A stretch of 64,000 nucleotides of DNA from an uncultured bacterium (GTDB lineage: Bacteria; Krumholzibacteriota; Krumholzibacteriia; JACNKJ01): positions 3,051,849-3,115,848 of the forward strand of contig CAVOFT010000001.1 in the NCBI GenBank assembly GCA_963695095.1. The letters are read 5' to 3'. The position numbers and the translations under genes are program-made. This document shows positions 1 to 64,000 of the stretch, piece after piece. Numbering within the stretch: the stretch's first letter is position 1; the number at the start of each line of letters is the position of its first letter. The notes beneath the pieces were generated by a model. It worked only from the letters and a program-made list of their open reading frames with translations. It was not told the DNA's origin and did no database searches.

Positions 1-255
1 GAGATGGACGTCCCCACCCGCAGTTCCTACGTGCTCGCCGTGGTCCAGCCGGAGGAGCGGACGGTCGCCTCGGGCATCACCAATCTCGTCCGCCTGGGCG
101 GCTGGGCCGTGGCGCCCGCCCTGGCCGGCAGCCTGATGGACCCCGGGTCGCTCTACCTGCCGCTCGTCATCGGCGCCGGCATGAAGATCGCCTACGACCT
201 GCTGCTCTGGCGCGCATTTCGCGCGATCAAGCCACCGGAAGAGTCGCAGACGTAA
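1..255 (+). CDS. C-terminal fragment of a membrane transporter, MFS-like. The start lies upstream of the window.
   Basis: ORF 4..255 is hydrophobic TM-like sequence ending at TAA. There is no in-window start. Confidence 0.45.
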   Translation, partial: EMDVPTRSSYVLAVVQPEERTVASGITNLVRLGGWAVAPALAGSLMDPGSLYLPLVIGAGMKIAYDLLLWRAFRAIKPPEESQT

Positions 256-311
256 CTATTTAGCGTCACCTTTGCGATTCCGATAAAGTCCTGGCGGCAG
301 CACCCGATGAA

Positions 312-2548
312 TTGTTGAGCGATTCACCGGGAAAGGTCGCCATGCAAACTGAGCTGGAGCTGAGGGAAGCGCTGGCGCGTGACATCGACAGCCTCGCCGA
401 TCAGCTCTCCCAGGCCGCCGACGGCAACTTCGACTTCCGTGTACATACGGACTCCGCCGATGCGCGCGTGCAGAAGCTCGGGACGCTGGTCAACATCGTG
501 GTCGAGAGCGCGCGCCGGGCCATCGCCGAGCTCAAGCAGGAGCATCGCAGGCTGCAGGAAAGCGAGCAGCGGCACCGCGACTACATCGCGAACACGCCCC
601 TCGGCGTGTTCGTCACCGATGAGCGGGGCCGCTACGTCCAGGTCAACCCGGCGGCCTGCCGCATGACCGGCTACGCGGAGCACGAGCTGCTGGCCATGAG
701 GATCCCCGATCTCCTGGGCCGAGAGGGCATCGCCGCCGGGATGCGCTACTCCAGGCTGTCGCCGAGGCAGGCGAGGCGCATGACGAGTTCCGTTTCCGCA
801 CCAAGAGCGGCGAGCTGCGCTGGTGGTCCGTCTCCGCCGTGAAGCTGTCGGAGTCCCGTTTCATCGGCTTCTGCAGCGACATCAGCGAGCGCAAGCGCGC
901 CGAGGAGGCGCTACGGGAATCGCGCGAAGTGCTGCAGGGTGTTCTCGATGCCATCCCGGTGCGGGTCTTCTGGAAAGACAGAGAACCTGGTCTACCTCGG
1001 CTGCAATGCGGCCTTCGCGGGGGATGCGGGGGTCGCGGGGCCCGAGGCGGTCATCGGCAAGGACGACTTCGCGATGGGCTGGCGGGACCAGGCGGAGCTT
1101 TATCGAGCCGACGATCGCGCCGTGATCGAAGGCGGGCAAGCCAGACTCCTCATCGAGGAGCCGCAGACGACGCCCGACGGCGGGCAGATCCACCTGCTGA
1201 CGAGCAAGCTCCCCCTCCGCGCCGCCGACGGCGCCATCGTCGGCGTGCTCGGCACCTACTACGACATCACCCCCCTCCGCCGCGCGGAGCAGGACTACCG
1301 CACGCTGTTCCGCGAGATGCTGGACGGCTTCGCCTTGCACGAGATCATCTGCGACGCCGCCGGGCGGCCGGTGGATTACCGCTTCCTCGCCGCCAATCCG
1401 GCCTTCGAGCGCATGACCGGCCTCGAGGCGGCGGCGATCCTGGGGCGGACGGTCCTCGAGGTCCTGCCGGACCTCGACCGCTCCTGGATCGACACCTACG
1501 GCAAGGTGGCGCTGAGCGGCGAGCCGGCTCACTTCGAGGACGAGGTCGCGTCCATGGGCAAGCGCTTCGCGGTGTCGGCCTTCCGGCCCGCGCCGGGCCA
1601 GTTCGCCTGCTTCATCGCCGACGTCACCGCCCAGCGGCTGGCGGAGGCGGAGCAGCGCCGCCTCGAGGAGCAGCTCGGCCAGTCGCAGAAGCTGCAGGCG
1701 GTCGGCCAGCTCGCCGCCGGCATCGCCCATGAGATCAACACGCCCGCGCAGTTCGTGGGCGACAGCATCCAGTTCCTCGGCGACAGCATCGCGCCGATCG
1801 AGTCCCTCCTCGCGAAGTCCGGCGGCGGCTGGCCGACCTGCCGGCCACTGCCGAGCACGAGGAGCTGCGCGCGCAGATCGCGGCGGTCGAGGCCGCCGTC
1901 GACATCAACTTCGTGCTCGAGAACTTCCCCGGCGCCGTGGCCGACGCCAAGGACGGCGTCTCGCGGATCTCCACCATCGTGCGCGCGATGAAGGAATTCG
2001 CGCATCCGGACCAGAACGAGAAGGCCGCGGCAGATCTCAATCGCGCCCTCGAATCCACGCTGACCATCGCGCGCAGCGAGTACAAGTACGTGGCCGAGCT
2101 GGTCACCGAATTCGGCGAGATGCCGCCGGTGATCTGCCACCTCGGCGACCTGAACCAGGTCTTCCTCAACCTGCTGGTGAACGCCGCCCATGCGATCGGC
2201 GATGTCGTCGGCACGAGCGGCGCGCTGGGGACCATCCGCGTGCGCACGGCCCGCGAGGGCGACTGCGCGCGCATCGACATCGAAGACACGGGTGGCGGCA
2301 TTCCCGAGGCCGTCCGCGATCGCGTCTTCGAGCCCTTCTTCACGACCAAGGCGGTCGGCAAGGGCACCGGACAGGGCCTGGCCATCGCCCATGCGATCGT
2401 CGTCGGGAAGCACGGCGGCACGCTGCGCTTCACTTCCGAACTCGGCAAGGGCACCTGCTTCACGATTCGCCTGCCGCTCGTCCCCGTCGTCCCCGCGGCG
2501 ACGCCGCTCCCCTCCCACCAGTCACCGACTGGAGAAGGATCGACATGA
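312..2548 (+). pseudogene. PAS/PAC-domain sensor histidine kinase, reading frame broken at least 3 times
   Basis: Four consecutive ORF pieces (312..842, 839..~960, 939..1991, 1913..2548) alternate between two frames. Together they give two PAS/PAC domains, a coiled coil, a HisKA H-box (AAGIAHEINTP) and an HATPase_c domain (G-boxes DTGGGIP, GKGTGQGLAIA). Confidence 0.75.
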
Positions 2549-3144
2549 ACCAGACTTCCGTGACCGCGGACGCCCAGACGCCGCCGGCAAGCGACACCCT
2601 CAGCACGGTGCTCTTCGTGGACGACGAGCCGAAGATCCTCACCGGATTGCGCGTGGCGCTGCGCAAGTTTCCCTTCCGGATCCTCACGGCGAATTCGGCC
2701 GCCGAGGCCCTGGCCGCGCTCGCTGAGCAGCATGTGGACGTGGTGGTCTCCGACGAGCAGATGCCGCTGATGTCGGGCTCGCAACTGCTGAGCGTGGTGC
2801 GCAAGCAGCATCCGGAGACGATTCGGATCATCCTCACGGGCCAGGCGAGCCTCGAAGCCGCAGTGCGCGCCATCAACGAGGGAGAGGTCTATCGCTTCCT
2901 GGCCAAGCCCTGCAATCCGATGGATCTCGCGAACACCATTCTCGGCGGTCTGCAGCTGCGCGATCTCGCCAGGCAGAGCTCGCGCCTGCTGTCCCGGACG
3001 CGCCAGCAGCAGGCCGTCCTGCGCAAGCTCGAGAGCCAGCATCCCGGCATCAGCGAGGTCAAGGTGGACGCGGGCGGCGCCATCCAGCTCGAGGCCGGCG
3101 ATCTGCAGAGCCTGATCCGGGAACTCGAGCAGGAAAACCGCTAG
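2545..3144 (+). CDS. Response regulator with a receiver domain only, plus a coiled-coil tail
   Basis: ATG at 2545 overlaps the kinase stop as ATGA and a GGAGAAGG RBS lies upstream. Receiver motifs are present: VLFVDDE, VVVSDEQMP, LTGQAS. It is an intact 199-aa ORF. Confidence 0.85.
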   Translation: MNQTSVTADAQTPPASDTLSTVLFVDDEPKILTGLRVALRKFPFRILTANSAAEALAALAEQHVDVVVSDEQMPLMSGSQLLSVVRKQHPETIRIILTGQASLEAAVRAINEGEVYRFLAKPCNPMDLANTILGGLQLRDLARQSSRLLSRTRQQQAVLRKLESQHPGISEVKVDAGGAIQLEAGDLQSLIRELEQENR

Positions 3145-3257
3145 CGCCGGGTTGCCGGGCGGCGGCGTTCCCCCTCGGCGCTGCCAGCCCCCCAACCCCT
3201 GTCCTTGACAGCCGGCAGCCTGCCATGCCCACCTGCGGCAACTCAGGAGGTGCCGCC

Positions 3258-3701
3258 ATGGCCGAGACTGGCCTGTTCGCGAAGTGGATCCGCTCGGGTC
3301 CCGCCCTGCATAGCCTGCTGCGCATCGTGGCCGCGCTCATGTTCCTGCAGGCCGGCACGATGAAGCTCTTCGCCTGGCCGATGGGCATGCCGCCGGACGG
3401 CAGCACCGCGAAGCTCCTCACGCAGATCGGCATCGGCGGCCTGCTCGAGGTGGGCGGCGGCCTGCTCATGTTCGTGGGCCTCTTCACGCGGCCCGTCGCC
3501 TTCCTGCTCGCCGGCGAGATGGCCGTGGCCTACTTCCAGTTCCACCAGCCGCAAGGCCTCTGGCCCGTGCAGAACGGCGGCGTGGCGGCCGCGCTCTACT
3601 GCTTCGTCTGGCTCTACTTCTCCGCTGCCGGGGCAGGACCCTGGAGCCTCGACGCGCGCCGGAGCGCCCCTCGCCGATATCGGAGCGATAAGGCTGATTA
3701 G
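3258..3701 (+). CDS. DoxX family membrane protein
   Basis: Four predicted TM helices. The protein resembles DoxX (LLRIVAALMFLQAGTMKLF...GGLLEVGGGLLMFVGLF). The internal Met at 3258 is the preferred start. Confidence 0.75.
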   Translation: MAETGLFAKWIRSGPALHSLLRIVAALMFLQAGTMKLFAWPMGMPPDGSTAKLLTQIGIGGLLEVGGGLLMFVGLFTRPVAFLLAGEMAVAYFQFHQPQGLWPVQNGGVAAALYCFVWLYFSAAGAGPWSLDARRSAPRRYRSDKAD

Positions 3702-3814
3702 CACTTGTTGCCCGCCAGGCTTGCGCGGGAGAGCGCGCTGCGGGATAATGAAGCTGTGAGTGCTGCCGGCCCCGCGCGAGCGCTGCGCCGAATAACCTGA
3801 ACAGGGAGGGCGAG

Positions 3815-4337
3815 ATGGCCGCAACTCCAGGCCGGAGCGCCCAGGCGGCCGCGAGCGAGTTGCGGCTCACTCGCGAGCTTGCCGCGCCGCCGAGCCTCGT
3901 CTTCCGCGCCTGGACGGAGACCGCGCGCCTGCGCCAGTGGTGGGGGCCGCGCGGCTTCACGGTGATCGGGATGGCCAACGACCCGCGCCCGGGCGGCATC
4001 TGCCACTACGGCCTCGCCGCCCCGGATGGCCGGGTGCTCTGGGAGCGCTGGGTCTACCGTGAGATCCAGCCGCCCGACCGGCTCGTCCTCGTCGCTTCCT
4101 TCGCGGACGCCGAGGGTCGCGTCATCCGCCACCCGGTCGCCACCGACTGGCCCATGGAGACGCAGATCAGCCTCGACTTCGCGGCCTTCGGGAGCGACAC
4201 ACGGCTGACCCTCTGCAGCGCCCCCGACGGCGCAGGCCGCCGAGCAGCAGGCCTTCCGCGACGGCCACGCCTCCATGCAAGCGGGCTGGGAAGGCACCCT
4301 GGCCGCACTCGCTGCCCATCTGTCCAGAAATCCCTAG
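3815..4337 (+). CDS. SRPBCC / AHSA1 (activator of Hsp90 ATPase homolog) domain protein, with one frameshift near 4225
   Basis: The N-terminal 135 aa are AHSA1-like (LVFRAWTETARLRQWWGP...). The conserved C-terminus (EQQAFRDGHASMQAGWEGTLAALAAHL*) appears in another frame and ends at TAG ~4337. Confidence 0.6.
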
Positions 4338-4376
4338 GCGGTCAGCGGCCGGCGGGGCCAGATCCGGCAGCGACGC

Positions 4377-4766
4377 TCAGTCGCCCTCGCCGCGACCGTG
4401 ACCATGACCATGGAGGCCGCAGGTGGCATCGGGGTCCACTTCGACGAGGGCTTCGCGCTCCAGATCGGCAAGCGTGGCGGCGACCGTGGGCTGGCCCGCA
4501 AGGTAGATCCGGAGGCCCGCGGCCTGCAGCTTGCCGAGCGCTCCTGCTGCCGATACCGCCAACGGCGATCGCGTCCATGGCCTCACCGGCCAGGACGGCC
4601 AGCGGCTGGCACATCCCGTGCGCATGGTGCTGGTCTGTTGATTGGCGATGCTGCGGCAGTCGCCGCTCTCGGTGTCGACGACGAGAAAGAGCGGCGCTGA
4701 GCCGAAGTGCGCGCAGACGGGGCTCTTCAGGCCGGCGTCCTTGGTGACGGGAATGCAGAGTTTCAT
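4377..4766 (-). CDS. NifX/NifB-C-like dinitrogenase FeMo-cofactor biosynthesis domain protein, internally frameshifted
   Basis: The N-terminus reads [28 protein letters not shown]. The family motif [27 protein letters not shown] is in the overlapping ORF 4342..4965(-) frame. An AAGGAGAG RBS precedes the start. Confidence 0.6.
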
Positions 4767-4929
4767 GGATCCTCTCCTTGTTCGGGTGCCTCCCAGCCCG
4801 CCCGGCAGCGGCCGCCGCGATGCGGCTGAAGGTAGAACGCGACACGCCCATGCGTGCGGCGGCCTCCTCTTGATAGAGCCCCTCCAGATCGGCCAGGCGG
4901 AGGGCTTCCAGTTCGTCGAGGGTCATGGC
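4766..4929 (-). CDS. DUF134-family small helix-turn-helix protein (sigma-70 region 4-like)
   Basis: [36 protein letters not shown] is the classic DUF134 N-terminus, which is commonly paired with NifX-like genes. In a +1 frame the 3' end terminates with TGA overlapping the downstream ATG (ATGA), so an indel near the 3' end is likely. Confidence 0.45.
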
Positions 4930-5003
4930 GATGGACTCCAGCGCGCGCAGCGGGCCGAGCTGCACCCAGGCGATCTCGCCCCGCTCGCCACTACAGGCTT
5001 GCC

Positions 5004-7321
5004 TCAGTCCGCGAGGCCCATTCTAGCCAGGAAGGCCGCCCAGCGCGGATCGGCGTGCAGCAACGCAAAGGAAGGCTCGCGCTTGACCTCGCTGAGACCC
5101 GCGTCGCGCTGGGCATAGGAGCGCTCAAGCCAGGCGAAGGCCGGCTCGACTTCCCCGCGCAGAGCGAAGGCAGCCGCGATCTGGTAGGCACCGTCATCCG
5201 GATAGTCCGCGACGAGCGTGGCGAGCGCACGGTCAGATTCTTCCTGGCGACCGAGGACATGATAGGCGACGGCGAGGGACATGAGTCGCGCCCACTCCTC
5301 GGGCTCGCGCTCGGCTTCAGCCAGCGCCTCCTCGTTCCGACCCTGGCCAAGGAGAACCGAACCCAGCATCATCCGCGTCCCGACTCGCTGCGGCGAGATC
5401 TCCAGTACCCGCCGATAGGCGGCCTCCGCCTCCGCCAGCATCCCGGCTGCCCGATAGCTCATGCCGAGCCCTGCGTAACCGCCGGCGCTCAGGGGATCCT
5501 GCTCAACAGCCCGCTGCCCCAACACGATGGCCTCATCCACGCGGCCCAGATCGCGCGCCAGCGTGGCGGCTCCGCGCAGGACATCGGCGCGGCCGGGGGC
5601 GATCGCGAGGGCCCGGCGATGCGAGGCATCGGCGGCCTGCCAGTCCCAGTCGTAGGATGTCTGGAGCGTGGCCAAGGCCAGGTGACCCTCGATCAACTCG
5701 GGCTCGAGCGCCAGCGCCCGCTCGGCCGCCTCCCGCGCAAGCCCGTGGCCCTTCGCCAGGGGAGTCCAGCTATAGCCCGCCTCGTGCCAGTGGGCGCGCG
5801 AGAGACAGGCCCAGGCCAGCGCGTGGCCCGGATCGATGGCAAGCGCCTGGCGCAGGTACTCGATGCCCTTGGCGATGTCCTCGCGCCCGAGGCGATCGAC
5901 GAGGAAGCGTCCCTGCAGGAAGAGCCGGTGGGCCTCGCTGCTCTCGCCGCGGCCCCTGGCCGCCGCGGCAACCTCGGCCCGCGCCTCGCCGCTCGCCTTC
6001 GAGTGGGCGGCCTCGCCGAGCAGGGTCGTGCGCAGCTCCTTCACCACCGACTGCGCGATGTCGTCCTGCACCGCGAAGATGTCCTCCAGCGTGCGGTCGT
6101 AGGTCTCCGACCAGAGCTGGTAGCCGTCGGCCACCTTCACGAGCTGCACGGCGATGCGCACGCGGTTGCCCACCTTGCGCACGCTGCCCTCGAGAACGCT
6201 GGCCACGTTGAGCGGCATGCCCTACGTCCGAGACCGTTGCATCCTTGCCCTTGAAGCTGAAGGCCGAGGATCGCGCCGCCACGCGCAGGCCGCTGATCTT
6301 TGCCAGCGTGCCCAGCAGCTCGTCGGCGAGGCCGTCGGCGAAGTACTCGTCTTCCTCGTCGCGGCTGCGGTTGACGAAGGGCAGCACGGCGATCGAAGGG
6401 ACTTTCTGCGCAGCCGCTGCGGCGGCGCCCGAGTCGAGACGTGGCGCCGGCGGGCGCGACTCCATGCTGCTGCGCAGCAGCTTCCAGCTCGTTGCGCACG
6501 TCCTTCGCGGTCTGGAACCGTCGCTCGGGATCCTTCACCAGGCAACGGCCGATGATGCGCTCGAGGTCGGCGGGCAGCTCCGCGCGCAGGCTCGCGAGCG
6601 GCGCCGGCGGGTCGCGCAGGATCGCCGAGCTGACATCGGCAGCGTCGCGCCGGCGAACGGGCGCCGGCCCGTTGCGAGTTCGTAGAGCATGATGCCCAGC
6701 GCGAAGAGGTCCGTGCGCGCATCGACCGCCTCGCCGCGGAGCTGCTCGGGCGCCATGTACGGGCACGGTGCCCAGCACCTGGCCCGGCGACGGAGATGCG
6801 GTTCGACGGCGGCGAGCGTGCGCGTCTCGGCCAGGGCCGCATTCACCCGGCCAGCTTGGCGAGGCCGAAGTCGAGCACCTTCACGCGGCCCTCGCGCGTG
6901 AGCATGACGTTGGCGGGCTTGAGGTCGCGGTGGACGACGCCCTTCTCGTGCGCGGCGGCGAGGGCGTCGGCCAGGCGGGATCGCCAGCTCGAGCAGGCGG
7001 GCCAGCGGCAGGCCGCCGGGGCGACCAGCTGTCGAGCGCCCTGCCCGTCGACCAGCTCCATGGTCAGGAAGTGGCGTCCCTCGGCCTCCTCGATCGAGTG
7101 GAGCGTGACGATGTTGGGGTGGTTGAGCGCGGCGACCGCGCGGGCCTCGCGCTCGAAGCGGGCCAGGCGCTCGGCGCGCGGCCACGCCGCGGGCAGCACC
7201 TTGAGCGCGACCTCGCGGCCGAGCCGGCGTCGCGGGCGCGGTAGACCTCGCCCATGCCGCCCGCGCCGAGGGGCAGCGAGGATCTCGTAGCCGCCGGGCG
7301 CGTGCCGGGTGCAAGGAACAT
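5004..7321 (-). pseudogene. Ser/Thr protein kinase with a TolB-N/CadC-like domain and TPR repeats (BTAD-like), broken by at least 4 frame switches
   Basis: The kinase is spread over minus-strand ORFs 7064..7321 (glycine loop [13 protein letters not shown]), 6843..7358 ([23 protein letters not shown]) and 6137..6778 (C-lobe). ORF 5770..6465 carries SIAVLPFVNRS..FADGLADEL. ORF 5004..6218 carries the TPR region. Confidence 0.75.
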
Positions 7322-7414
7322 GGGGTTTCAGGTTCCGGCCGCGGAGCCCCGCTGTCAAAGCGCGCTACCCGCCCTGCCGCGGCCGGCGATCCTGCGTTGC
7401 CGGCCAGATCCGCC

Positions 7415-8059
7415 TCATTGCCGCCAGCGGACGATTATGTCCTGCTCGGGCAGGAAATCCGTGGCTTCGTAGGTCCAGACCGTCTCCTCGCCCTCGCGCC
7501 GTGTGAACGGGAAACTGAACTCGAGCGGTTCGGCGCCGGCGGGCAAGCGGATCTCGAAGGCGGCTCGCGCAGCGGGCTGCCCCAGGCCTTGGTGGTCGTC
7601 ACGATGTAGCGCGCGTATTCGGTGCGGGAGCTGCTGGCGATAGATCGCCTCGACGACGAGCGTATCGCTCGGGCAAGGCGGCAGCCACCAGCGCACGACC
7701 CACTGGCCCGGCACTGCCTCCCAGCGCGCCGGCAGCGCGGGGCCGCTGGCGCCGGCCCGCACCGCGAGCGAGACGAAGCGCCAGCCGCCGAGCAGCGAGT
7801 CGCGCGGGAAGGGATAGAAGAGCGGGAAGCGCCTCGCTCTCCCCCCCGCAAGCAGCAGGTAGCTGCCGCGCACCTCGAGGCTGTCGCCGACGATGCTCAG
7901 GCAGATGCGCTCGGAGTCGAAGACGAGCGGGCAGGCTGCGCGCGAAGGCGTCGCGCGGCCGGGTGGCACCCGGCGCTTCCCCGTCGCGCAGGCCAGCGCT
8001 TGCGCGAGCAGGCCGAGCGTCAAGGCGGCGGCAAGCGCGGCAGCACGCGCAACCGTCAC
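7415..8059 (-). CDS. Hypothetical lipoprotein
   Basis: An intact 214-aa ORF with a lipoprotein signal (..[10 protein letters not shown]). There is no recognisable family. Confidence 0.5.
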
Positions 8060-10495: not shown

Positions 10496-10540
10496 CCTTG
10501 GGTCCTTGAGAGGCATGCGCACAAACGGCGCCTCCGCGCG

Positions 10541-10612
10541 CCGGCTTGCGGCCCTGGCCGAGGCGGAGTGTACACGTGTACAAAACAAGCCGCCCTGCCG
10601 GGTCGTGATCTG
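10541..10612 (+). repeat. ~70-bp remnant homologous to an internal segment of the DUF222-HNH gene at 31369..31438
   Basis: ~88% nucleotide identity, including the perfect palindrome TGTACACGTGTACA. It translates to ALAEAECTRVQNKPPCRVVIC, against ALAESECTRVQNEPPYQVVIY in the intact gene. It is intergenic, between rsgA and the pectate lyase gene. Confidence 0.6.
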
Positions 10613-10636
10613 CCCGGCGGGGACGCTGCGCGCCGA

Positions 10637-12070: not shown

Positions 12071-12213
12071 GGGGCACCTCGGGCTTGCGCGGACTTCCTC
12101 AGGCGATCGGGGGCATGCCGAGTGTGCAACGGGCGTGCCGGGGCGGCAAGCATTGCCTGTCCTCCCCCGTCAAAGGCGTTGTCGGACGGCGGACTTTGCC
12201 GCAGTATCGGCGC

Positions 12214-17156: not shown

Positions 17157-17358
17157 ACCTTGCGGCATTATACATAGCGCTGCTAGGTATGTCCAGGGGA
17201 ATTGTCGGAGTTCGGGAAGGGGAAGGCTGTCCGCACCAGCGCGCAAGCAAAGACCTCCGCCGCCGGCTGGCGAAGGAGGCCTTCATCGCGTGATCGTAGC
17301 GCCGCCGAAGGCCAGCCTTCGCGACCGAACCGCGCGGCGATCGAATCCAAGGATAATC

Positions 17359-17433: not shown

Positions 17434-17611
17434 AAATCGCCACCCAGGATAGGGCCGGCGGCGGCGCCTGTCAAGACGGCCGCCCGGGTCGCATCCCCGA
17501 CCGCTGCGCGCCGCGCCCGCCCGGAATCGCTCGGCAGTCGCCGGGATCTTCGCTATACTTGCAGCATGGATTCCGGGGGCGGGATGCTCGGGTCCCGAGG
17601 CGAAGGGGGCG

Positions 17612-19423: not shown

Positions 19424-19433
19424 CTCGAGGCTC

Positions 19434-40491: not shown

Positions 40492-40500
40492 GTCCGCGGT

Positions 40501-49926: not shown

Positions 49927-53561
<3,635 letters not shown>

Positions 53562-53576
53562 CCGGGAGGAACCGCG

Positions 53577-54579: not shown

Positions 54580-54623
54580 CGCCTGCTGCGGGCGCCCCGC
54601 CGTCTTTTCGCGAAGGGAGTCCC

Positions 54624-56711: not shown

Positions 56712-56725
56712 GGCCGGGAGAGACC

Positions 56726-58612
56726 ATGCGTACGGCGCCAACGACAGGACCACAGATGGACGAGAACTGGCAGCAGACCTATCACGATCAGATCCTCACC
56801 CCCGACACTGCGATCGGCAAGATCAAGCCGGGCCAGCGCGTCTTCATCGGCACGAGCTGCGGCACGCCGCAGGCCCTCGTCAAGGCCCTGGCCGAGCATG
56901 CGCCGGACCTGTCCGACACCGAGATCGTCCACATGCTCAGCATGGGCGATGCCCCCTACGCCCAGCGCGAGCTGGCGGGCACCTTCCGGGTGAACAGCTT
57001 CTTCATCGCCCCCAACGTGCGCGATGCCATCCAGGAGGGCTTCGGCGACTACACGCCGATCTTCCTGTCCGAGATCCCGCGCCTGTTCGCCTCGGGCCAG
57101 CTGCCCCTGGACGTCGCCCTGATCCAGGTCAGTCCGCCGGACGCGCGCGGCTTCGTCTCGCTCGGCATCTCGGTGGACATCGTCAAGAGCGCGGCCGAGA
57201 ATGCCGCCCTCGTCATCGCCCAGGTCAATCCGCAGATGCCGCGCACCCATGGCGATAGCCTGGTGGACATCAACGACATCGATTGGCTGGTGCCGGTGGA
57301 CGAGCCGCTCATCGAGTTCCAGACCGTCGAGCCCGACGACCTCACGCGCAAGATCGGCGAATACGTGGCGGCCCTCGTCGACGACGGCTCGACCGTGGAG
57401 CTGGGCATCGGCCGCATTCCCCACGCGACGCTGGAGTTCATGGCCGGCAAGCGGGAGATCGGCATCCACACCGAGATGCTCACCGACCAGATCATCGACC
57501 TCATCGACAAGGGCGTGATCACCGGCGCCCGCAAGTCGCTGGACCGGGGCAAGGTCGTCGCCAGCTTCTGCATGGGCACGCGACGGCTCTACGATTACAT
57601 CGACGACAACCCGACCTTTGCCTTCCATCCCACGGAGTACGTCAACGATCCCTTCGTGATCAGTCGCCAGCAGAACATGGTGGCCATCAACGTGGCGCTG
57701 GAGATCGACCTTACCGGCCAGGTCTGCGCCGACACCATCGGCGGCCGCTTCTTCTCAGGAATCGGCGGCCAGGTGGACTTCAACCGCGGCGCCGCTCGCT
57801 CCCACGGCGGCAAGGCGATCATCGCCCTGCCCGCCACGGCCAAGGGCGGCAGCATCTCGCGCATCGTCGCCCGGCTCTCGCCTGGCGCCGGCGTGGTGAC
57901 CACCCGCGGCGACGTGCACTACGTCGTCACGGAGCACGGCGTGGCCTACCTGCACGGCAAGAGCGTGCAGAATCGGGCCCTCGCCCTGATCAGCATTGCC
58001 CATCCGGATTATCGCGCGCAGCTCCTCAAGGACGCCGTGGATCTCAAGTACGTGCGGCCGGAGATGCTCGCCGTGGGCGACCGCCTCGTGGTCGGGCCCC
58101 AGGAGCTGCGCAGCAGCTTCGTCCTGGACGACGGCACCCAGATCAACTTCCGGCCCATCCATCCCACGGACGAGCCGCGCATGAAGGAGCTCTTCTACGC
58201 GCTCAGCCGGGAGACCGTCTACTACCGCTTCATGCAGGCGCTGACGCGCATCCCCGAGCGGCAGGTGCTGGATTTCGTCTTCGTGGATCATCGCCGCGAT
58301 GTGGCCATCGTGGGCGCAGTGCCCGAGGCTCATGGCGATGAGCTCGTGGCCATCGGCCGCTACTACCTCGACCCCGTCACCAATCGCGCCGAGGTGGCCT
58401 TCACCGTGCGCGACGGCTGGCAGCGCCGCGGCATCGGCACCTACATGCTGCGCAACCTGATCACGATCGCCCGCCGCAACGGCATCAGCGGCTTCACGGC
58501 TGAAGTGCTGCGCGAGAACCGGCCGATGCGCTCGGTCTTCCACAACAGCGGCTGCAAGGTGAGCACGCGCCTGGAGGGCGGCATCTACCACTACGAGCTG
58601 GAGTTCGTGTAG
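56726..58612 (+). CDS. Acetyl-CoA hydrolase/transferase family protein fused to a C-terminal GNAT acetyltransferase domain
   Basis: The N-terminal ~470 aa are the AcetylCoA_hydro N and C domains (4-hydroxybutyrate CoA-transferase-like). The C-terminal ~160 aa are GNAT (RPIHPTDEPRMKELFYALS...WQRRGIGTYMLRNLITIAR). Intact. Confidence 0.8.
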   Translation: MRTAPTTGPQMDENWQQTYHDQILTPDTAIGKIKPGQRVFIGTSCGTPQALVKALAEHAPDLSDTEIVHMLSMGDAPYAQRELAGTFRVNSFFIAPNVRDAIQEGFGDYTPIFLSEIPRLFASGQLPLDVALIQVSPPDARGFVSLGISVDIVKSAAENAALVIAQVNPQMPRTHGDSLVDINDIDWLVPVDEPLIEFQTVEPDDLTRKIGEYVAALVDDGSTVELGIGRIPHATLEFMAGKREIGIHTEMLTDQIIDLIDKGVITGARKSLDRGKVVASFCMGTRRLYDYIDDNPTFAFHPTEYVNDPFVISRQQNMVAINVALEIDLTGQVCADTIGGRFFSGIGGQVDFNRGAARSHGGKAIIALPATAKGGSISRIVARLSPGAGVVTTRGDVHYVVTEHGVAYLHGKSVQNRALALISIAHPDYRAQLLKDAVDLKYVRPEMLAVGDRLVVGPQELRSSFVLDDGTQINFRPIHPTDEPRMKELFYALSRETVYYRFMQALTRIPERQVLDFVFVDHRRDVAIVGAVPEAHGDELVAIGRYYLDPVTNRAEVAFTVRDGWQRRGIGTYMLRNLITIARRNGISGFTAEVLRENRPMRSVFHNSGCKVSTRLEGGIYHYELEFV

Positions 58613-58626
58613 TCCAGGCGCGCCGC

Positions 58627-61086
58627 CTAGCGGATCAGCGTGAACTTCCCCAGCTTGTCGGGATAGCCGGGCGCCGCCACCGTGAACAGGTAGACGCCAC
58701 TGGCCACCTGCTGGCCGTTGCGGCTGATCAGGTCCCAAGTTCGAGTGCCGGTGGCCGCGTAGTCCCCGCCCGCAATGGCCGCCGCGGCATCGTGGTGCAG
58801 CACCTGCACGAGATCCCCGGCCAGCGTCCAGATGCGGATGGTGCAGGGCGCGGCCGGCAAGTGGCGGAATTCCACCTTCAGTCCGCTCGGGTCCTGCGCG
58901 TTGGGTTCCAGCGCCCAGGGCGCCATCGATTCCCGCGTGGCCGGGTTCGGCACCACGTAGACGGCATCGGCGTCGTAGGCCCAGCTCGGCTGGCTCGCGC
59001 TCTGGGGCACCGCCAGCCGGAAGCCGTTGCTCGGGCTCCCCTCCAGGCCGCGGGCGAGACCGATGACATGCCCGTTTGCGTCCAGGATCGGCAGATGGTC
59101 CTTGGCCGTCACCGCGTAGAAGTAGGGCACGCCCAGATTGACGTCGACGTCGCGCAGGCGGTAGTAGCGCCGCCCCTGCGGCAGCCCGAGCACGTCGCGG
59201 GCGAGGCCGATGGCGGTATCCGCGTCGGCGATGCTGAAGCCCGCCGGCGGCAGCCAGTCGCGCGCGCGCTGCAGCCAGGGCATCTCCAGCAGCACCTCGC
59301 TGTACCAGGTCACGAGCGTGGGATCGACATTGGGCTGGTAACGCAGGAGGTCCAGGCTGCGATCGGGCTTGAGGCCGTTGACCAGGTCCACCTCGTCCAG
59401 GAGCATCCACAGGTCTCCGGGCGGGCCGGTGGCGGCGCTCGTGCCCTGCGGCCGCGTCCAGTCGTCCGCGCGCCAGATGCGGTAGCCCTCGAAGTCGTAG
59501 TCGCCGGTCAGCTCGTCGGGCACCTGCTCGCTGAAGTTGTCCCAGAAGAGCTGATTGCCGCGCTCGCTGGGCCAGACACGCAGCGAGGGCGGCGGCGGCG
59601 CCGAGGCGGTGAGCCAGGGCAGCCGGTACTCGGCGCCGCCCACGCCCGTGCACCATGGGAAGAAATTGTCGCAGCGGCTGTTGGTGAAGCTCTCCCACTG
59701 GCAGTCGGCGTTCACCCACACCCGGCTGCCCTTGGGCACGACCAGCGGATCGGGGCTCATCCCGCAGGGATCCCACCACTCGATCGTGCGCAAGGGATCG
59801 TAGATGAGCGACTCGGCGCAGTCCTTGCCGGTATCGGGATCCTCGTCCACGTCGAGCCAGAGCCCCTCCTCGGCGAAGGCGAGCTGCGTGGCGAGATCGA
59901 GCAGGTCCTCGGCGTCCGCCGCCGCGAGGAAAGCCAGCCGCACGCGGGCGCTGTCGCCGGGCGCGAGCTGGAAAGGCCCCACGGAGATGAGGTAGCGCCA
60001 GTCGCGCTCGCGTTCGTCCGGTGCGTCGAAGTGGCGCCGGCTGAGCAGCTCGTAGCGCTGATCGTCATTGACCGCCTCGCCGCCCTCGTCGAAAGGCGCG
60101 ATGCGTGAGAAGCGGTGCCAGGCGTTCAGCTCCGGAGTGCCGCTGAACCAGGGCGCCCACTCGCCGAGCAGATCAGTGCTGTGCTCAAGGAGCATCAGGC
60201 CGAGCCGGCCCGGCGCGGGGCGGCTGGCGGCCGCGTCGCCGTCGCCGTCCCAGGCCTCGACGAGCTGCACCCTGAAGGCTCGGCTGGCCGGCCGCTGCGT
60301 CACGCAGAGGGTCTCGCGACGCAGGCGGACGCGATCGTCATCGAAGCCGCTGGCGCTGGAGCGATGGCCGACATCGGGATCCACGTAGAGCCCGATGTAG
60401 ACGTCCTCGAGCTGGCCACCGCTCACGTTGCGCACCTGGTACTCGAAGGCGATCGCACCGGCCAGGTCCGCCTGTTCCCACTGATAGCTCTCCTGGGTGA
60501 CCTCGATGCCGAGCGGACTGTGATCGGGCGAGCCGAGCAGGGCCTGCGGGTGATCGTCGCGGTAGCGACAGCGGAACATCTGGTTGCCGATGGCGGCGAA
60601 GTCCTCGTCCACGCGCCCATCGCCGTCGTTGTCCTCGCCGTCGAGAGGATCCTCGTCGACGGCCCCATCGGCATCGTCGTCGGGTTGAGCGCTCTGCAGG
60701 CGATTGCCGCCCGGCGCTCCGGCGAAGCTGGCATGAATGCTGTCCCAGCCGTGGTCGCCGGGAAAGAACTCGGGATCCGGCCAGGCCGTGCTCACGCGCG
60801 GGAGGCCATTGCGCCGCGCGCCTACCCACAGTCCGGCAATATAGAGGAACTCCACGCCGCTGCCGGCCGGCCACTGGGCCGAGGGCGCCCAGGAGATGTC
60901 CAGGTTCTCGCCGGGGAAGGAGCCGAGGAGGCCGTAGTTGGTCACGTTCATCTGCAGCTCGCCCACGTTGTGGACGAAGCGGCCGTCGATGACCTTCGTG
61001 CCCAGGGCCGGCGGCGCCGATTCGCTCCGCGCCGACCCGCGGCCGGAGCTGCCGATCAGCAGCCCGCAGACCAAGGCCATCTGCAT
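58627..61086 (-). CDS. Large secreted hypothetical protein with an Asp-rich Ca-binding-like region and a T9SS C-terminal sorting domain
   Basis: The probable start is MQMALVCGLLIGSSG (signal peptide). The long upstream extension of the ORF looks like GC-driven run-on. There is an acidic DDDADGAVDEDPLDGEDNDGDGRVDED stretch. The C-terminus reads GVYLFTVAAPGYPDKLGKFTLIR. Confidence 0.6.
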   Translation of the reverse strand: MQMALVCGLLIGSSGRGSARSESAPPALGTKVIDGRFVHNVGELQMNVTNYGLLGSFPGENLDISWAPSAQWPAGSGVEFLYIAGLWVGARRNGLPRVSTAWPDPEFFPGDHGWDSIHASFAGAPGGNRLQSAQPDDDADGAVDEDPLDGEDNDGDGRVDEDFAAIGNQMFRCRYRDDHPQALLGSPDHSPLGIEVTQESYQWEQADLAGAIAFEYQVRNVSGGQLEDVYIGLYVDPDVGHRSSASGFDDDRVRLRRETLCVTQRPASRAFRVQLVEAWDGDGDAAASRPAPGRLGLMLLEHSTDLLGEWAPWFSGTPELNAWHRFSRIAPFDEGGEAVNDDQRYELLSRRHFDAPDERERDWRYLISVGPFQLAPGDSARVRLAFLAAADAEDLLDLATQLAFAEEGLWLDVDEDPDTGKDCAESLIYDPLRTIEWWDPCGMSPDPLVVPKGSRVWVNADCQWESFTNSRCDNFFPWCTGVGGAEYRLPWLTASAPPPPSLRVWPSERGNQLFWDNFSEQVPDELTGDYDFEGYRIWRADDWTRPQGTSAATGPPGDLWMLLDEVDLVNGLKPDRSLDLLRYQPNVDPTLVTWYSEVLLEMPWLQRARDWLPPAGFSIADADTAIGLARDVLGLPQGRRYYRLRDVDVNLGVPYFYAVTAKDHLPILDANGHVIGLARGLEGSPSNGFRLAVPQSASQPSWAYDADAVYVVPNPATRESMAPWALEPNAQDPSGLKVEFRHLPAAPCTIRIWTLAGDLVQVLHHDAAAAIAGGDYAATGTRTWDLISRNGQQVASGVYLFTVAAPGYPDKLGKFTLIR

Positions 61087-61184
61087 GGCAATGCGAAACT
61101 CCGGCCGCACCCCGTCCTCCCCTCGCCGGTGGCGCTTCTGTAGAGATAGCATGGATTTAGCGCGAGTGCGAGCCCGGAGCGACG

Positions 61185-64000
61185 CTACTTCACGAGCAGC
61201 AGGGTGCGGCTGGCGCGAAGGCCTCCGGCCTCGAGACGACAGAAGTAGGCCCCCGAGGCGAGCGGCGCGCCGTCGGCGCCACGGGCCTCCCAGCGCAGGC
61301 GATGCTCGCCCGCGGGCAAGGGCGCCGCGGCGAGCGGCCGGGCCACCTCGCGGCCCAGCACATCGAGAATGCGCAGCGTCACGCGAGCCGCCGCCGGCAG
61401 ACCGAATCGCAACTCGGTGGCGGGGTTGAAGGGATTGGGATGGTTGGGCGCCAGGTAGAAGCCGCTGGGCGCCGGCAAGCTCGCCGTCAGCGTGCAGCCC
61501 ACGGTGTAGAGGCCCACCAGGGCCGCGCAGTCGTTGTTCTCGGGCAGACAGGGCGAGGCATCGGCGAGCGTGTACTCGGCTCCCGTCACCGCGCAGTAGA
61601 GCGGATCCGCAGCGAAGCAGTCCCCGCCCGGCGTCTCCGCGTAGCCGGCATAGGGCTCGCTGCCATTGCCGAAGATGTCGCTGCAAGTCCAGAGCGTGGA
61701 ACTGGGAGCGTCCGCCTCGTGGAGAGCGCCGCCACTCTGGGCCTCGTTGAAGGTGACGAGCAGGCGTTCGAGCGCGAGCGTGGCCGCGTAGGCCAGGCCG
61801 ATGGCCCCGCCCCGCGCGGCCTGATTGTCGCTGAGCGTGGACTGGGCGATCTGCGGCGCGCCGCCGCTGAGGTAGACGGCGCCCCCGCTCTCGGCAGCCA
61901 GGTTGTCGTGCGCGAGCAGGTGACTGAACTGGGGAGCGCCGCCGAAGCTGGCCAGGCCGCCGCCGTTGCCGGTAACCGTGCCGTAGGCCTGGTTGCGGCG
62001 CAGGACCAGTCCCTCCACCTGCGACAGCGAGCCGCCCAGCACCAGGCCGCCGCCGGCGCCCTTGGCGCGACAGTCCTCGATCACCAGATTGCGCAGGGTG
62101 GGCGAGGCATTGCTCACGCGAATGCCGCCGCCGTTGTTGGATTCCCACTCGTAGTAGACGTGGCCGCCGCGAATCGTGAAGCCGTCGACGACGGCCCCTG
62201 GCCCCTCGCCGTGCTCGAAGTTGATTGCCCGGCCGGCCAGCTCGCAGTCGATGATCGTCAGGGCCGCCCCGCCTTCGCTGCGCAGCACCACGTCGTGGCC
62301 GCCGAAGTCGAGCCGCTTGTTGCCCGGGCCGCGATAGGTGCCCGGCGCCACGAGCACGGTGTCGCCGTCGACCGAGACGTCGAGAGCGGATTGGATGTCC
62401 GCGTACTCCGCCGGCACGCGGTGCAAGGTGCCGCGCTGGGCGAGGAAGTCCTGACCGGAGATGTCGGCGATGACGTCGGTGTAGCTCCGGTAGGGCGGCG
62501 TGAAGGTGTAGTCTTGCGCCAGGGGCACGATGATCCCCGTCCAGTGGTCCGGCACGAGGACGAGGTAGTCGCCCCCGGCGTCCGTGTGCGCCTCGTAGAA
62601 GCTGCCGTAGACCCCGGCGCCGACCAGGGGCGAGCCGCCCGGGTCCGCGATGCGGCCGGCGATCGCGCGGTGGATGTTGTCGCAGCCCACGGGCAGCGGT
62701 CCGATGTCCAGGCCGCAGCTGTTGTTGGCGGCCGCGCAGGGGGAGTCCGCATCGAGATGGAAGTCGCGGGTGAGCGGCGCGCAGAAGAGCGGGTTCGCGC
62801 TGAAGTTGCCGTCCTGGCCGCTCAGGTCGACGGCGCTGCCCCTCCAGTCGCCGCCGGCGTTGCCGAAGACATCGCTGCAGCTCGCGGCGAAGCCGGCGCC
62901 GCCGGCGGCCTCGAGGCCGCCGCCCTCGAAGCTGAAAACCGCCAGGCTCCGCGTCAGGGTAACCAGGCTGGCCTGATCCGCCCAGATCGCCCCGCCGCCG
63001 TTGTCGGCGCTGTTGAAGGCCAGCACGCTGGCCACGAACTCAGGCGTGGACGCCAGGCAGTAGAGAGCGCCGCCTCGATTCGCCGCGCTGTTGTCGTAGA
63101 GCTGGCAGCCCTGGAAGCTCGGGGCCGCGCCGGCGGCGCAGAACAGGCCGGCGCCATCGTCCGCAGCGGTGTTGTGGTGAATGACCAGATCGATCGCGGT
63201 CGGCGAGGCACTGATGCAGGCGAGGCCGCCGCCGTCCGTGAGGCCGTGGTTTTGCATGAGGATGAGATTCTCGAGCGTCGGCGCGCTGCCGATGCACAGG
63301 ATGCCGGCGCCGGTCGTGTGGCGACCGTTCTTGATCGTGAAGCCGCTCAGCTTGGTCGCCGCCGTCTCGCCGCTCACGAAGAGGAAGCCGGGGGCCGCCG
63401 TCTGGCAATCGATGACGGTGACGGCCGGTCCGCCCGAGCTCAGGATGACCAGGTTCTTGCCGCCCGTGCTCAGGTTGCGATTGCCCGTTCCGGTGTAGGT
63501 GCCGGGCGCGACGCGCACGGTGTCGCCCGGCACGGCCACATCGATGGCCGCCTGCAGCGTGGCATACTCCAGGGGCACCTCGTGCACGTGGATGTTGCCC
63601 GTGCACGCCTCGCCGAAGCGGCCCATCTGCACGCCGCAACCGTTGCCCCCGGGCAGGCAGGGCGAGCTCTCGTGCAGGCCCAGCGGCGTACCGTCGCCGG
63701 CGGCCCCGCAGAACACCGGGTCGGTGGCGAGGTTGCCGCCGCTGCCGGTGGCATCGGCCAGGGTGCCGGCGTAGCCGGGAGCGCCGCCGCCCCAGACGTC
63801 GCAGCAGGTGATGGCCAGGGCGGCGGACCCGGCGCCGTGCAGGCCGTCCGGCAGGTTCAGCGCCAGCAGGCAGGCGCTCAGCGTGGCCAGCGCCGCCCCG
63901 TCCAGCGAGAGGGCGCCGCCGACGCGCGCGGCCGTGTTGGTGTGGATGGTGGAGCCGTCCACGCTCGGCAGCGCCGCCCCCTCGCAGCGCAGGGCGCCGC
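61185..64000 (-). CDS. Very large parallel beta-helix repeat protein with a T9SS C-terminal sorting domain (5' end beyond the window)
   Basis: There are more than 20 PbH1-like repeats (GGALYC..., GGAIWADQ..., GGGIRVSNASPTLRNLVIEDC...). The C-terminus reads HPNPFNPATELRF..GAYFCRLEAGGLRASRTLLLVK. The ORF is open to the window edge. Confidence 0.7.
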   Translation of the reverse strand, partial: GALRCEGAALPSVDGSTIHTNTAARVGGALSLDGAALATLSACLLALNLPDGLHGAGSAALAITCCDVWGGGAPGYAGTLADATGSGGNLATDPVFCGAAGDGTPLGLHESSPCLPGGNGCGVQMGRFGEACTGNIHVHEVPLEYATLQAAIDVAVPGDTVRVAPGTYTGTGNRNLSTGGKNLVILSSGGPAVTVIDCQTAAPGFLFVSGETAATKLSGFTIKNGRHTTGAGILCIGSAPTLENLILMQNHGLTDGGGLACISASPTAIDLVIHHNTAADDGAGLFCAAGAAPSFQGCQLYDNSAANRGGALYCLASTPEFVASVLAFNSADNGGGAIWADQASLVTLTRSLAVFSFEGGGLEAAGGAGFAASCSDVFGNAGGDWRGSAVDLSGQDGNFSANPLFCAPLTRDFHLDADSPCAAANNSCGLDIGPLPVGCDNIHRAIAGRIADPGGSPLVGAGVYGSFYEAHTDAGGDYLVLVPDHWTGIIVPLAQDYTFTPPYRSYTDVIADISGQDFLAQRGTLHRVPAEYADIQSALDVSVDGDTVLVAPGTYRGPGNKRLDFGGHDVVLRSEGGAALTIIDCELAGRAINFEHGEGPGAVVDGFTIRGGHVYYEWESNNGGGIRVSNASPTLRNLVIEDCRAKGAGGGLVLGGSLSQVEGLVLRRNQAYGTVTGNGGGLASFGGAPQFSHLLAHDNLAAESGGAVYLSGGAPQIAQSTLSDNQAARGGAIGLAYAATLALERLLVTFNEAQSGGALHEADAPSSTLWTCSDIFGNGSEPYAGYAETPGGDCFAADPLYCAVTGAEYTLADASPCLPENNDCAALVGLYTVGCTLTASLPAPSGFYLAPNHPNPFNPATELRFGLPAAARVTLRILDVLGREVARPLAAAPLPAGEHRLRWEARGADGAPLASGAYFCRLEAGGLRASRTLLLVK

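Follow-up and report, generated by a model that had tools for sequence, protein, structure and literature searches.

Frame-breaking single-base indels in a Krumholzibacteriota contig are confined to short blocks and almost certainly reflect uneven sequence consensus rather than gene decay

A stretch of 64,000 nucleotides (here, 'the window') from a public single contig of 3,610,528 bp (3.61 Mb), derived from an uncultured member of the Krumholzibacteriota, carries many genes with interrupted reading frames, and the record at face value suggests the loss of PFOR, rsgA, murU and several signalling genes. The question raised by this locus is whether such lesions are mutations of the organism, sites at which expression restores the frame, or errors of the deposited consensus. 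A first-pass annotation had described a strongly non-uniform density of frameshifts, had attributed them to sequencing errors limited to parts of the contig, and had proposed a comparison with orthologs; that comparison, once carried out, yielded repaired genes that are full length relative to Krumholzibacteria orthologs and free of in-frame stops.

Events were detected using a codon-usage Viterbi path together with ortholog-guided, frameshift-aware alignment, for which the reference orthologs were taken from syntenic Krumholzibacteria relatives (L003, L014, L015, L019, P0001-4 and P0257). The Viterbi path by itself overcalls frame flips: nine such flips at 8114-8901 were dropped, the tblastn match of the L014 homolog lying in one frame over 8092-8970. 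Also rejected were an apparent frameshift at junction 2522-2590, which corresponds to the stop of the histidine kinase and the start of the response regulator (Pfam and ORF boundaries); a 'switch' at 46016-46117, which is the boundary of the glyoxalase and S8 peptidase genes; and an event at the PadR 3' end (16823), an alignment artefact at a point where PadR is open to its stop, in an ATGA overlap with the ATG of the next gene. What remains is approximately 50-60 single-base frame-breaking indels, concentrated in six dirty blocks and two small outlying sites, listed here with intervening event-free stretches and individual lesions.

750..1829, + strand: dirty block A, PAS/histidine-kinase gene, 3 frame changes at ~750, ~980 and 1829 (Viterbi frames, Pfam)
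1830..4231, + strand: event-free block, kinase C-terminus (HATPase_c), response regulator and DoxX (full-length Pfam domains in single ORFs)
4232..7627, both strands: dirty block B, AHSA1, DUF134/NifX-like, Ser/Thr kinase and hypothetical genes (Viterbi, Pfam, tblastn, alignment)
~4232, + strand: AHSA1, 1 event (block B)
4546-5007, - strand: DUF134/NifX-like gene, at least 2 events (truncated DUF134 and Nitro_FeMo-Co matches in separate ORFs)
6222, 6485, 6640 and 6849, - strand: Ser/Thr kinase, at least 4 events (tblastn HSPs of the L014 kinase alternate frames)
~7567 (deletion) and 7626-8 (insertion), - strand: compensating pair in the hypothetical gene 7415-8059 (20 out-of-frame residues within an open ORF)
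9545..10422, + strand: dirty block C, rsgA, 7-8 events (frameshift-aware alignment to two orthologs)
9545 (A), 10107 (C), ~10200-10208 (2), 10252-4 and 10422-4, + strand: rsgA insertions (alignment)
~9723 and ~10070, + strand: rsgA deletions (alignment)
10423..13590, both strands: event-free block, pectate-lyase-like gene (-) and most of amgK (+), 0 events against L014 orthologs
13591..14334, + strand: dirty block D, amgK 3' end and murU, extra bases only (ortholog alignment)
13590-2, + strand: amgK, 1 extra base (ortholog alignment)
13742 (A), 13936-8 and 14333-5, + strand: murU, 3 extra bases (ortholog alignment)
15861, 16013/4 and 16479-81, - strand: dirty block E (15861-16480), gene for a 453-aa membrane protein, 3 extra bases (L014 ortholog alignment)
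16481..26862: event-free region of 10 kb with PadR, beta-propeller-like protein, M3 peptidase, second Ser/Thr kinase, saccharopine dehydrogenase and others (Viterbi, orthologs)
26863..26864, + strand: isolated extra base in a DUF3857/transglutaminase gene (one extra-nt event against a 717-aa L019 ortholog, 87% identity)
33684..33808, - strand: indel micro-burst in the gene for a ~240-aa secreted protein, net +2 (4 extra and 2 missing bases by alignment)
50339..53627, + strand: dirty block F, PFOR (CDS 49949-53565) and the start of the next gene (ortholog alignment)
53627, + strand: DHO-dehydrogenase-like gene, 1 extra base 50 nt into the gene (ortholog alignment)
53628..64000: event-free region, remainder of the DHO-dehydrogenase-like gene, acetyl-CoA synthetase (ADP-forming), acetyl-CoA hydrolase/GNAT, 831-aa and beta-helix genes (L003 orthologs)

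The uneven density first noticed by eye was borne out quantitatively. The dirty blocks are 0.1-3.4 kb long and contain 3-9 single-base indels per kb, and no frameshift was detected in the stretches of 3 to 23 kb that lie between them; the index of dispersion (7.1 per 2-kb bin) was matched by 0 of 20000 random placements in a permutation test, as was the occurrence of a 23.5-kb stretch without events. The events themselves form tight bursts (3 insertions in 26-41 nt; 4-6 events in 125 nt), and the blocks run across gene borders, through unrelated genes and over both strands, so that the distribution tracks stretches of the contig rather than genes, strands or functions. No difference in GC content separates dirty from event-free blocks. 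Ortholog-guided alignment gave 0 events in DoxX, the pectate-lyase-like gene, most of amgK, the M3 peptidase, the second Ser/Thr kinase, saccharopine dehydrogenase, FG-GAP, the S8 peptidase, glyoxalase, the ADP-forming acetyl-CoA synthetase, acetyl-CoA hydrolase, the 831-aa protein and the beta-helix protein.

The first 17 kb proved to be not one dirty patch but a mosaic in which dirty blocks of 0.6-3.4 kb alternate with blocks of 1.5-3.2 kb that lack a detected event, and it includes long genes free of any event. The estimate of one to four switches per affected gene was too low for rsgA, with its 7-8 events. Repaired rsgA displays a full-length RsgA_GTPase Pfam domain, is 80% (L014) and 83% (L015) identical to its orthologs, and aligns to 356-357 of 359 ortholog residues; repaired murU aligns to 244 of 244, and the repaired membrane protein to 453 of 453 at 85% identity to the L014 ortholog. 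In the histidine kinase the PAS domain is split over raw ORFs (profile positions 3-48 and 13-110) and is whole once these are stitched (Pfam); the positions of its events, taken from Viterbi frames, are accurate to about 30 nt. The intact neighbours already recognized in this region are indeed intact: the pectate-lyase-like gene (79% identity to L014) has no event, the response regulator is a full-length Pfam domain in one ORF, and PadR, upstream of the membrane protein, is in a single frame throughout. DoxX and amgK are 87% and 91% identical to their L014 orthologs, the former without any frameshift event.

Between 17.6 and 49.9 kb, where nearly everything had been described as intact, two exceptions were found: the inserted base 26863/4, which removes the N-terminal ~105 codons of the DUF3857/transglutaminase gene from ORF calls, and the burst 33684-33808, whose ~240-aa product, once repaired, is 71% identical to the 241-aa homolog P0257. 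Each gene of 16481..26862 follows one Viterbi frame throughout, and 19.5-26.6 kb has 0 events against L019 orthologs at 92-97% identity. Against L003 orthologs, 53628..64000 likewise has 0 events, at 65-88% identity.

The densest damage lies in PFOR, in which 20 single extra bases, 2 ambiguous double sites (52378/9; 52823/6) and 1 clear missing base (50339) span 50339-53352; each of the four closest PFOR homologs gives the same count of 20 extra bases, with 3-5 'missing'. The ~15 switches counted previously are thus an undercount relative to the ~23-26 indels recovered by alignment, because the triplets 51092/51106/51117 and 52697/52728/52738 compensate and are lost when net frame switches are counted. 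Repair yields 1193 codons with 0 stops. Event density in this gene has at most a weak tie to low protein conservation (p = 0.05 with clusters, 0.24 without). AT skew around PFOR is positive, and this is natural, the value being 0.18 here and 0.14-0.17 in relatives.

At the junctions inspected earlier, the events had been read as one-base changes in the length of G or C runs and considered typical of homopolymer error in sequencing; this reading is not supported. Approximately 84% of events are inserted bases (43 insertions vs 8 deletions, p = 3e-7), with at most 1 clear deletion among the 23 PFOR loci. Of 30 resolved insertions, 20 have the candidate inserted base standing alone (run length 1 nt), 9 have it in a run of 2 nt and 1 has it in a run of 3 nt, with no run of 4 or more, and 20 of the 30 inserted bases are unlike both neighbours; the events do not in general, as homopolymer-length errors do, fall within mononucleotide runs of usually 3-4 nt or more. 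Simulation through the same pipeline gave a log-likelihood of -68.5 for homopolymer extension vs -35.4 for a uniformly random inserted base (a difference of ~33), and under homopolymer extension the probability of at least 20 of 30 insertions having run length 1 is 4e-13. Homopolymer-length error of the 454, Ion Torrent or older Nanopore type, left in G/C runs where short-read polishing failed, is therefore very unlikely as the general cause, even though a few sites fit it: the deletion at 50339 (GCG[G]TG), insertions in CC or GG pairs at 51352/3, 52697/8, 13937/8 and 14334/5, insertions in CCC/GGG at 16479-81 and in CCC at 7626-8, and a CCCC run at 50664-9 that is a possible site with one of four references. 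Of the two junctions originally offered as examples, gcgGtg was read correctly, and is the sole clear PFOR deletion, whereas tgccccgg (50660) is one possible placement of several, the two closest relatives placing the extra base at 50673/4 (CA[T]C). A motif scan revealed no restriction-type motif that accounts for the event sites, and although unambiguous inserted bases are more often A than T (5 vs 0), this imbalance is not significant given coding-strand composition.

The composition of the insertions brings in a co-occurring related strain or species, through which both alleles of a variable site might have been written in series into the consensus wherever reads of the two populations were stacked together, giving an inserted base unlike its neighbour, mostly at degenerate third codon positions. 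Eleven of the 30 insertions consist of two different adjacent bases, either of which can be removed synonymously (for example GT[A][G], CA[T][C], GC[A][G], TC[G][C]), a share of 37% vs 20% expected for random insertion (p = 0.02), and inserted bases match their neighbour less often than composition-matched random insertion would predict (p = 0.03). Furthermore, the relative VGXI01 shows 92-97% protein identity over 19.5-26.5 kb and 70-91% elsewhere, from which it follows that closely related mosaic populations exist. Against this, the pure model falls below random insertion (log-likelihood -39.5 vs -35.4), nine unambiguous insertions fall between the first and second positions of a codon or at codon borders, the deletions are left unexplained, the variable parts of PFOR show at most a weak enrichment of events, and no second population was directly observed. 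Such an origin is judged fairly unlikely.

Real mutations, either in recently inactivated pseudogenes of the lineage or in a defective sub-population that was assembled, would require a different pattern. Real bacterial pseudogenes are deletion-biased, and the insertion bias observed here runs against that tendency. The frameshifts do stand in the public record, and the available data hold no direct read-level contradiction of them; yet ~25 independent indels within the 3.6-kb PFOR are accompanied by no nonsense codon (P ~1e-4 on the assumption that nonsense would make up 30% of point lesions), essential or core genes (rsgA, PFOR) are struck together, and the blocks cross gene borders and strands. 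Nor do the affected genes show an excess of amino-acid change or other signs of relaxed selection: (i) of 314 columns without variation among 120 homologs, repaired PFOR retains 313; (ii) its distance to outgroups (20.5-27.6%) is not above that of intact relatives, and its branch is no longer than theirs; and (iii) it is 85% identical to the L003 relative, vs 86-88% for three intact genes just downstream. The mixture of nonsense codons, larger deletions and raised divergence by which pseudogenes are recognized was not found, as the repaired ORFs contain 0 nonsense codons, and repair of indels only restores full-length ORFs collinear with orthologs in PFOR, rsgA, amgK, murU and the membrane protein. 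Inactivation by mutation is thus highly improbable. A related and even less probable proposal is that the extra bases are real in the DNA of a sub-population, arising from recent bursts of untemplated insertion over patches (for example, by error-prone repair or copying) or tolerated via a correction step; if this were true, the patches would measure some hundreds to some thousands of bases and be too recent for other changes to have accumulated.

Programmed recoding, in which ribosomal frameshifting, transcriptional slippage or RNA editing would restore the frames, is scarcely credible. Nothing specific speaks for it; the context CGATCG^A was seen twice, preceding two identical A insertions, and a third CGATCG in the block has no event. 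No common slippery motif or poly(A) tract is present at 30 resolved sites, and no defined motif conserved in orthologs was found; density reaches 9 events per kb, +1 and -1 events are both present, out-of-frame stretches are as short as 10-40 nt, and the orthologs are uninterrupted in four relatives. Because dirty blocks cross gene boundaries and strands while the repaired genes are conserved, neither decaying pseudogenes nor recoding accounts for the lesions.

Deposited RsgA (P0127) is a mis-framed, 365-aa frame chimera, the DHO-dehydrogenase-like protein is shortened to 291 aa, and P0253 and P0256 are truncated products, the latter a 157-aa truncation of the ~240-aa secreted protein. Run ERR12037370 contains this organism, and its independent Logan assembly encodes proteins identical to those of event-free blocks, including the exact 477-aa pectate-lyase-like protein on a contig of 2,264 bp; a further contig, of 1,607 bp, stops about 80 nt into PFOR. 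One Logan contig reaches a dirty block (the rsgA 3' end), with gene coordinates that are not collinear with the window. The 2,264-bp contig would be expected to span about 10158-10553, and its 131-aa ORF terminates 44-58 nt closer to the lyase gene than does any stop of the window. A scan of GTDB representatives with the pectate-lyase protein returned only relatives of at most 59% identity (Polyangiaceae and others) and not the same strain, a search of JGI metagenomes for exact 29-mers found no same-species contig, and look-ups of several window proteins gave no record or Logan contigs only. A composite 1806-aa query for Logan ORF fragments had no match, low-complexity out-of-frame words having probably filled the candidate list.

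The frameshifts are very probably consensus errors of the deposited sequence rather than mutations of the organism. As earlier suspected, the lesions look technical and are limited to parts of the contig: they comprise only +/-1 indels, leave no nonsense codons after repair, spare conservation and lie in blocks blind to gene and strand. Since they behave like block-confined technical errors, and since repair gives full-length conserved genes, the caution that any pseudogene call here is provisional was well placed. As to mechanism, we infer from its size that a 3.61-Mb contig from a metagenome came from long-read or hybrid assembly. In some blocks of 0.1-3.4 kb the consensus has only about the quality of a lightly corrected read; the placement of inserted bases fits a random-insertion model, and tight bursts of indels are frequent. 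Uneven polishing or read support along the contig appears the most plausible cause, for example through blocks left as draft or gap-fill long-read sequence, through filtered reads or through confusion with a related population, after which gene callers break up these genes or place them in the wrong frame. The candidate causes are hybrid gap fill, cross-mapping of strains and long-read blocks left unpolished. Residual indels are known to produce frameshifts in long-read (meta)genome assemblies, and residual Nanopore errors are described as homopolymer indels (PMC9262707); the mostly non-homopolymer insertions found here are unlike that classical residue, a point against the consensus-error reading. 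Block confinement and non-homopolymer insertions together point to a block-wise failure (of polishing, gap fill or mapping filter) and not to a uniform residual rate.

The significance of these observations lies in data quality and annotation, and is little biological: the 'pseudogenes' here are not to be believed, because the broken genes, which include that of an enzyme of central metabolism, almost certainly stem from uneven sequence consensus and not from gene decay. Such apparent losses would distort metabolic reconstruction and pseudogene statistics for the poorly known phylum Krumholzibacteriota. The signature (blocks, ~84% insertions, no homopolymer link, bursts) may help curators to locate the faulty pipeline step, and the repaired coordinates permit gene rescue without reads.

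Three kinds of known system invite comparison with the locus. Frameshifting in prfB and dnaX, and poly(A) slippage in endosymbionts, involve one site per gene and a defined slippery motif conserved in orthologs; they share with this locus a +/-1 discontinuity inside a functional gene, and differ from it in that up to ~25 sites per gene are found here, with no motif and none in orthologs. Reductive genomes, such as those of Mycobacterium leprae and recent host-restricted pathogens, likewise contain many frameshift-interrupted genes, but their decay proceeds through nonsense mutations, larger deletions and insertion sequences, with deletion bias and relaxed constraint, none of which is seen here. 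Indels of long-read and hybrid assemblies (Sereika et al. 2022, PMC9262707; proovframe, 10.1101/2021.08.23.457338; Kastor, PMC12007338) have in common with the present case single-base indels that break conserved genes, a megabase metagenome contig, removal of the lesions by reference to orthologs, and effects upon deposited proteins; they are classically homopolymer-linked and spread with coverage, whereas the events described here are mostly non-homopolymer insertions gathered in blocks of 0.1-3.4 kb, with event-free blocks between them.

Long open reading frames occur in all six frames of this G+C-rich DNA (approximately 70% G+C), so that lists of such frames were uninformative by themselves, and frameshifts were instead located by: (i) a codon-usage Viterbi path through six frames and a non-coding state; (ii) Pfam scans of the stitched translations; and (iii) frameshift-aware protein-to-DNA alignment against orthologs from syntenic relatives. 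Across the junctions, stitched translations carried full-length POR_N, RsgA_GTPase, Pkinase, PAS_4, AHSA1 and NTP_transferase domains that raw reading frames contained only in parts. The alignment served as its own control, in that the same relatives gave zero events (single-base indels that break a frame) in many genes: DoxX, the pectate-lyase-like gene, M3 peptidase, the second Ser/Thr kinase, saccharopine dehydrogenase, FG-GAP, S8 peptidase, glyoxalase, acetyl-CoA synthetase, acetyl-CoA hydrolase, an 831-aa protein and a beta-helix protein. Frame flips called by the Viterbi path alone, in an atypical region (8114-8901) and at two gene boundaries, were over-calls and were dropped. Approximately 50-60 events were found in total, clustered in blocks.

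Location of frame-breaking events (window coordinates)
750-1829, block of events
4232-7627, block of events
9545-10422, block of events
13591-14334, block of events
15861-16480, block of events
26863/4, lone extra base
33684-33808, burst of events
50339-53627, block of events

Event density inside the blocks is 3-9 per kb, and the index of dispersion (7.1 in 2-kb bins) was matched by 0 of 20,000 random placements, so that the patchiness described in the first-pass annotation is right in outline. The first 17 kb do contain the frameshifts it reported, but as a mosaic of blocks, between which lie stretches of 1.5-3.2 kb without a detected event, rather than as a single patch; the central part of the window, described as nearly all intact, does hold long event-free stretches, but also the lone extra base and the burst. 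No events were detected in 16.5-26.9, 26.9-33.7, 33.8-50.3 and 53.6-64 kb; event-free stretches were for the most part ortholog-checked, with parts covered by the Viterbi path only and 7.6-9.5 kb coarsely, with divergent homologs only. Block location was not predicted by GC content, nor convincingly by protein conservation. The alignment placed 7-8 events in rsgA, and 20 extra bases and 3 further lesions in the PFOR gene (49949-53565), for which approximately 23-26 indels are needed instead of the roughly 15 frame switches first counted, since compensating triplets are not seen as net switches.

All lesions are +/-1, although two places are ambiguous between +2 and -1 plus an extra codon, and insertions outnumber deletions 43:8. 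The sole clear deletion in PFOR, at 50339 (GCG[G]TG), corresponds to one of two junctions previously offered as examples of length change in G or C runs; the other, tgccccgg, is a possible placement with one of four references, but the two closest relatives place the extra base ten bases downstream. Thirty insertions were delimited by asking which base or bases could be removed for the best ortholog match, and placements were largely stable over the four references. The candidate base was unlike either neighbour in 20 of them, including 51208 (ATCG[A]CC), 51715 (ATCG[A]CG), 9545 (GCG[A]CC), 13742 (TGC[A]TC), 50588 (GT[A]GC) and 53352 (A[C]GC); it lay within a pair in nine and in a run of three in one. 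When four insertion models were simulated via the same pipeline and the observed categories scored against each, a uniformly random base gave lnL -35.4, a composition-matched random base -37.3, two synonymous alleles in series -39.5, and homopolymer extension -68.5. Together, run lengths and model scores leave the earlier attribution to homopolymer error unsupported, and that rationale for technical error is refuted.

Two unambiguous insertions in PFOR (51202-51208 and 51709-51715) consist of an A directly after CGATCG, in the shared 8-mer context CGATCG^AC, while a third CGATCG in that block (51178), naturally followed by AC, is unaffected. Chance alone would give approximately 0.04 such coincidences, although the pattern was picked out post hoc; it may be a hint of base-calling error tied to a motif, for instance through methylation.

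The clustered frameshifts are not a biological feature, and indirect evidence makes block-wise technical error in the sequence very probable. Once restored to the ortholog frame, PFOR contains no stop codon, keeps 313 of 314 columns invariant across 120 homologs, and is no more distant from outgroups than are intact relatives; its identity to the ortholog in L003, a syntenic relative, is 85%, versus 86-88% for the three intact genes directly downstream. Judging from typical indel-to-substitution ratios, some 25 neutral indels would be expected to be accompanied by excess substitutions, with PFOR identity well below that of its neighbours. This untouched coding information points to an artefact, as does the strong insertion bias, which runs counter to real bacterial mutation, where deletions predominate. 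Further arguments for an artefact are: (i) that no nonsense mutations or larger deletions are found among the lesions (P ~1e-4 if 30% of point lesions are assumed to be nonsense); (ii) that the blocks disregard genes, including genes on both strands, leaving one 1.4-kb gene and most of another untouched amid the first 17 kb, and in the case of the PFOR block stopping 50 nt into the next gene; (iii) that events form tight bursts (three insertions in 26-41 nt; 4-6 events in 125 nt), which in general experience fit low-quality read stretches or local misalignment in consensus building; and (iv) that the core genes rsgA and PFOR are affected together. Programmed recoding, in which such shifts would be read through, is excluded by the lack of a motif common to the sites, the event density and the uninterrupted orthologs.

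Exact look-ups placed the window's proteins on one contig of 3,610,528 bp in NCBI and ENA, whose deposited products include a 365-aa 'RsgA' chimeric between frames (P0127), a truncated DHO-dehydrogenase-like protein of 291 aa (P0253) and a 157-aa truncated form of a ~240-aa protein (P0256). The frameshifts are thus present in the public sequence, and an artefact of window cutting was rejected because that contig's own proteins are mis-framed. Two intact window proteins recur exactly on Logan contigs of run ERR12037370, in support of the event-free blocks that encode them being accurate. Gene coordinates on the Logan contig reaching into rsgA are not collinear with the window: a 2,264-bp contig encodes the lyase-like protein (477 aa, exact match) and a 131-aa reading frame, with the two stops 83 nt apart, whereas on that frame's strand in the window (region 10158-10640) the stops nearest to that of the lyase are at distances of 128 and 142 nt, and the collinear triplet 10551-3 is GCC rather than a stop. 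In the spacer or the rsgA 3' end, therefore, the independent Logan assembly and the window are not the same.

That spacer also holds one copy of a 67-nt direct repeat (10548-10614 and 31382-31448, 88% identical), which matches coding sequence of the reading frame at 30773-31804; both copies share the motif ...ECTRVQN(E/K)PP..., and the spacer copy resembles a remnant of this gene or a small mobile piece. The adjacent pectate-lyase-like gene (10637-12070), with no Pfam family recorded, has its best GTDB-representative matches in Polyangiaceae/Kofleriaceae (53-59% identity), and orthologs in the relatives L014 (79%) and L015. A 125-nt inverted repeat (6847-6971 and 21821-21945, 79%) lies in a pair of Ser/Thr kinase-TPR paralogs encoded on opposite strands; the one at 5008-7276 is frameshifted, and the other is intact, with 95% identity to its ortholog in VGXI01. 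When window 244-3257 is set against L014 4026-4098, DoxX directly follows an MFS transporter gene in L014, but in the window the two are separated by a PAS-histidine kinase and its response regulator (351-3141). After DoxX come AHSA1 and DUF134/NifX-like genes, the Ser/Thr kinase is encoded on the opposite strand, and a hypothetical gene (7415-8059) spans just residues 37-217 of its 493-aa ortholog. These differences are local rearrangements with respect to L014. Many large secreted proteins (34353-35939, 40504-41337, 43848-46016, 46552-48540, 58630-61006 and 61188-64000) end with a common C-terminal module of ~80 residues, ...NPFNP.T...GR.V..L....L.AG.H...WDG.D..G...ASGVY...L.........K..L.K, flagged FlgD_ig in relatives' orthologs; it is probably a phylum-typical domain for sorting or anchoring.

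The closest relatives of the window's genes are Krumholzibacteria/Krumholzibacteriota metagenome-assembled genomes: 44-63 kb is syntenic with L002/L003 (GCA_020633715.1, GCA_020633725.1), and two contigs of the bin 'Krumholzibacteria_VGXI01' with 3-17 kb (L014) and 19.5-32 kb (L019). Protein identity to L019 is 92-97% over five consecutive genes (19.5-26.5 kb) and falls to 87% and 70% in the next two (compared span 19400-30600), while that to L014 is 79-91% (compared span 3200-17200). Such unevenness suggests mosaic relatedness, possibly via recombination or a mixed bin.

That an uncultured organism yielded a contig of 3.6 Mb implies the use of long reads, and errors might have entered through draft or gap-fill segments of a hybrid assembly, through chunks skipped because no reads mapped confidently, or through confusion with a related population. 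For the last there is a mild hint, in that adjacent unlike pairs from which either base is synonymously removable are over-represented (11 of 30 insertions versus 20% expected, p = 0.02), and close mosaic relatives such as VGXI01 exist. Whatever the route, the analysis counsels caution over any gene called a pseudogene in this record, and it provides a fairly specific error signature for anyone returning to the reads. Residual Nanopore consensus indels have been found mostly in homopolymers (PMC9262707), whereas the indels described here mostly are not, and the affected blocks look more like lightly corrected, read-quality sequence missed by polishing.
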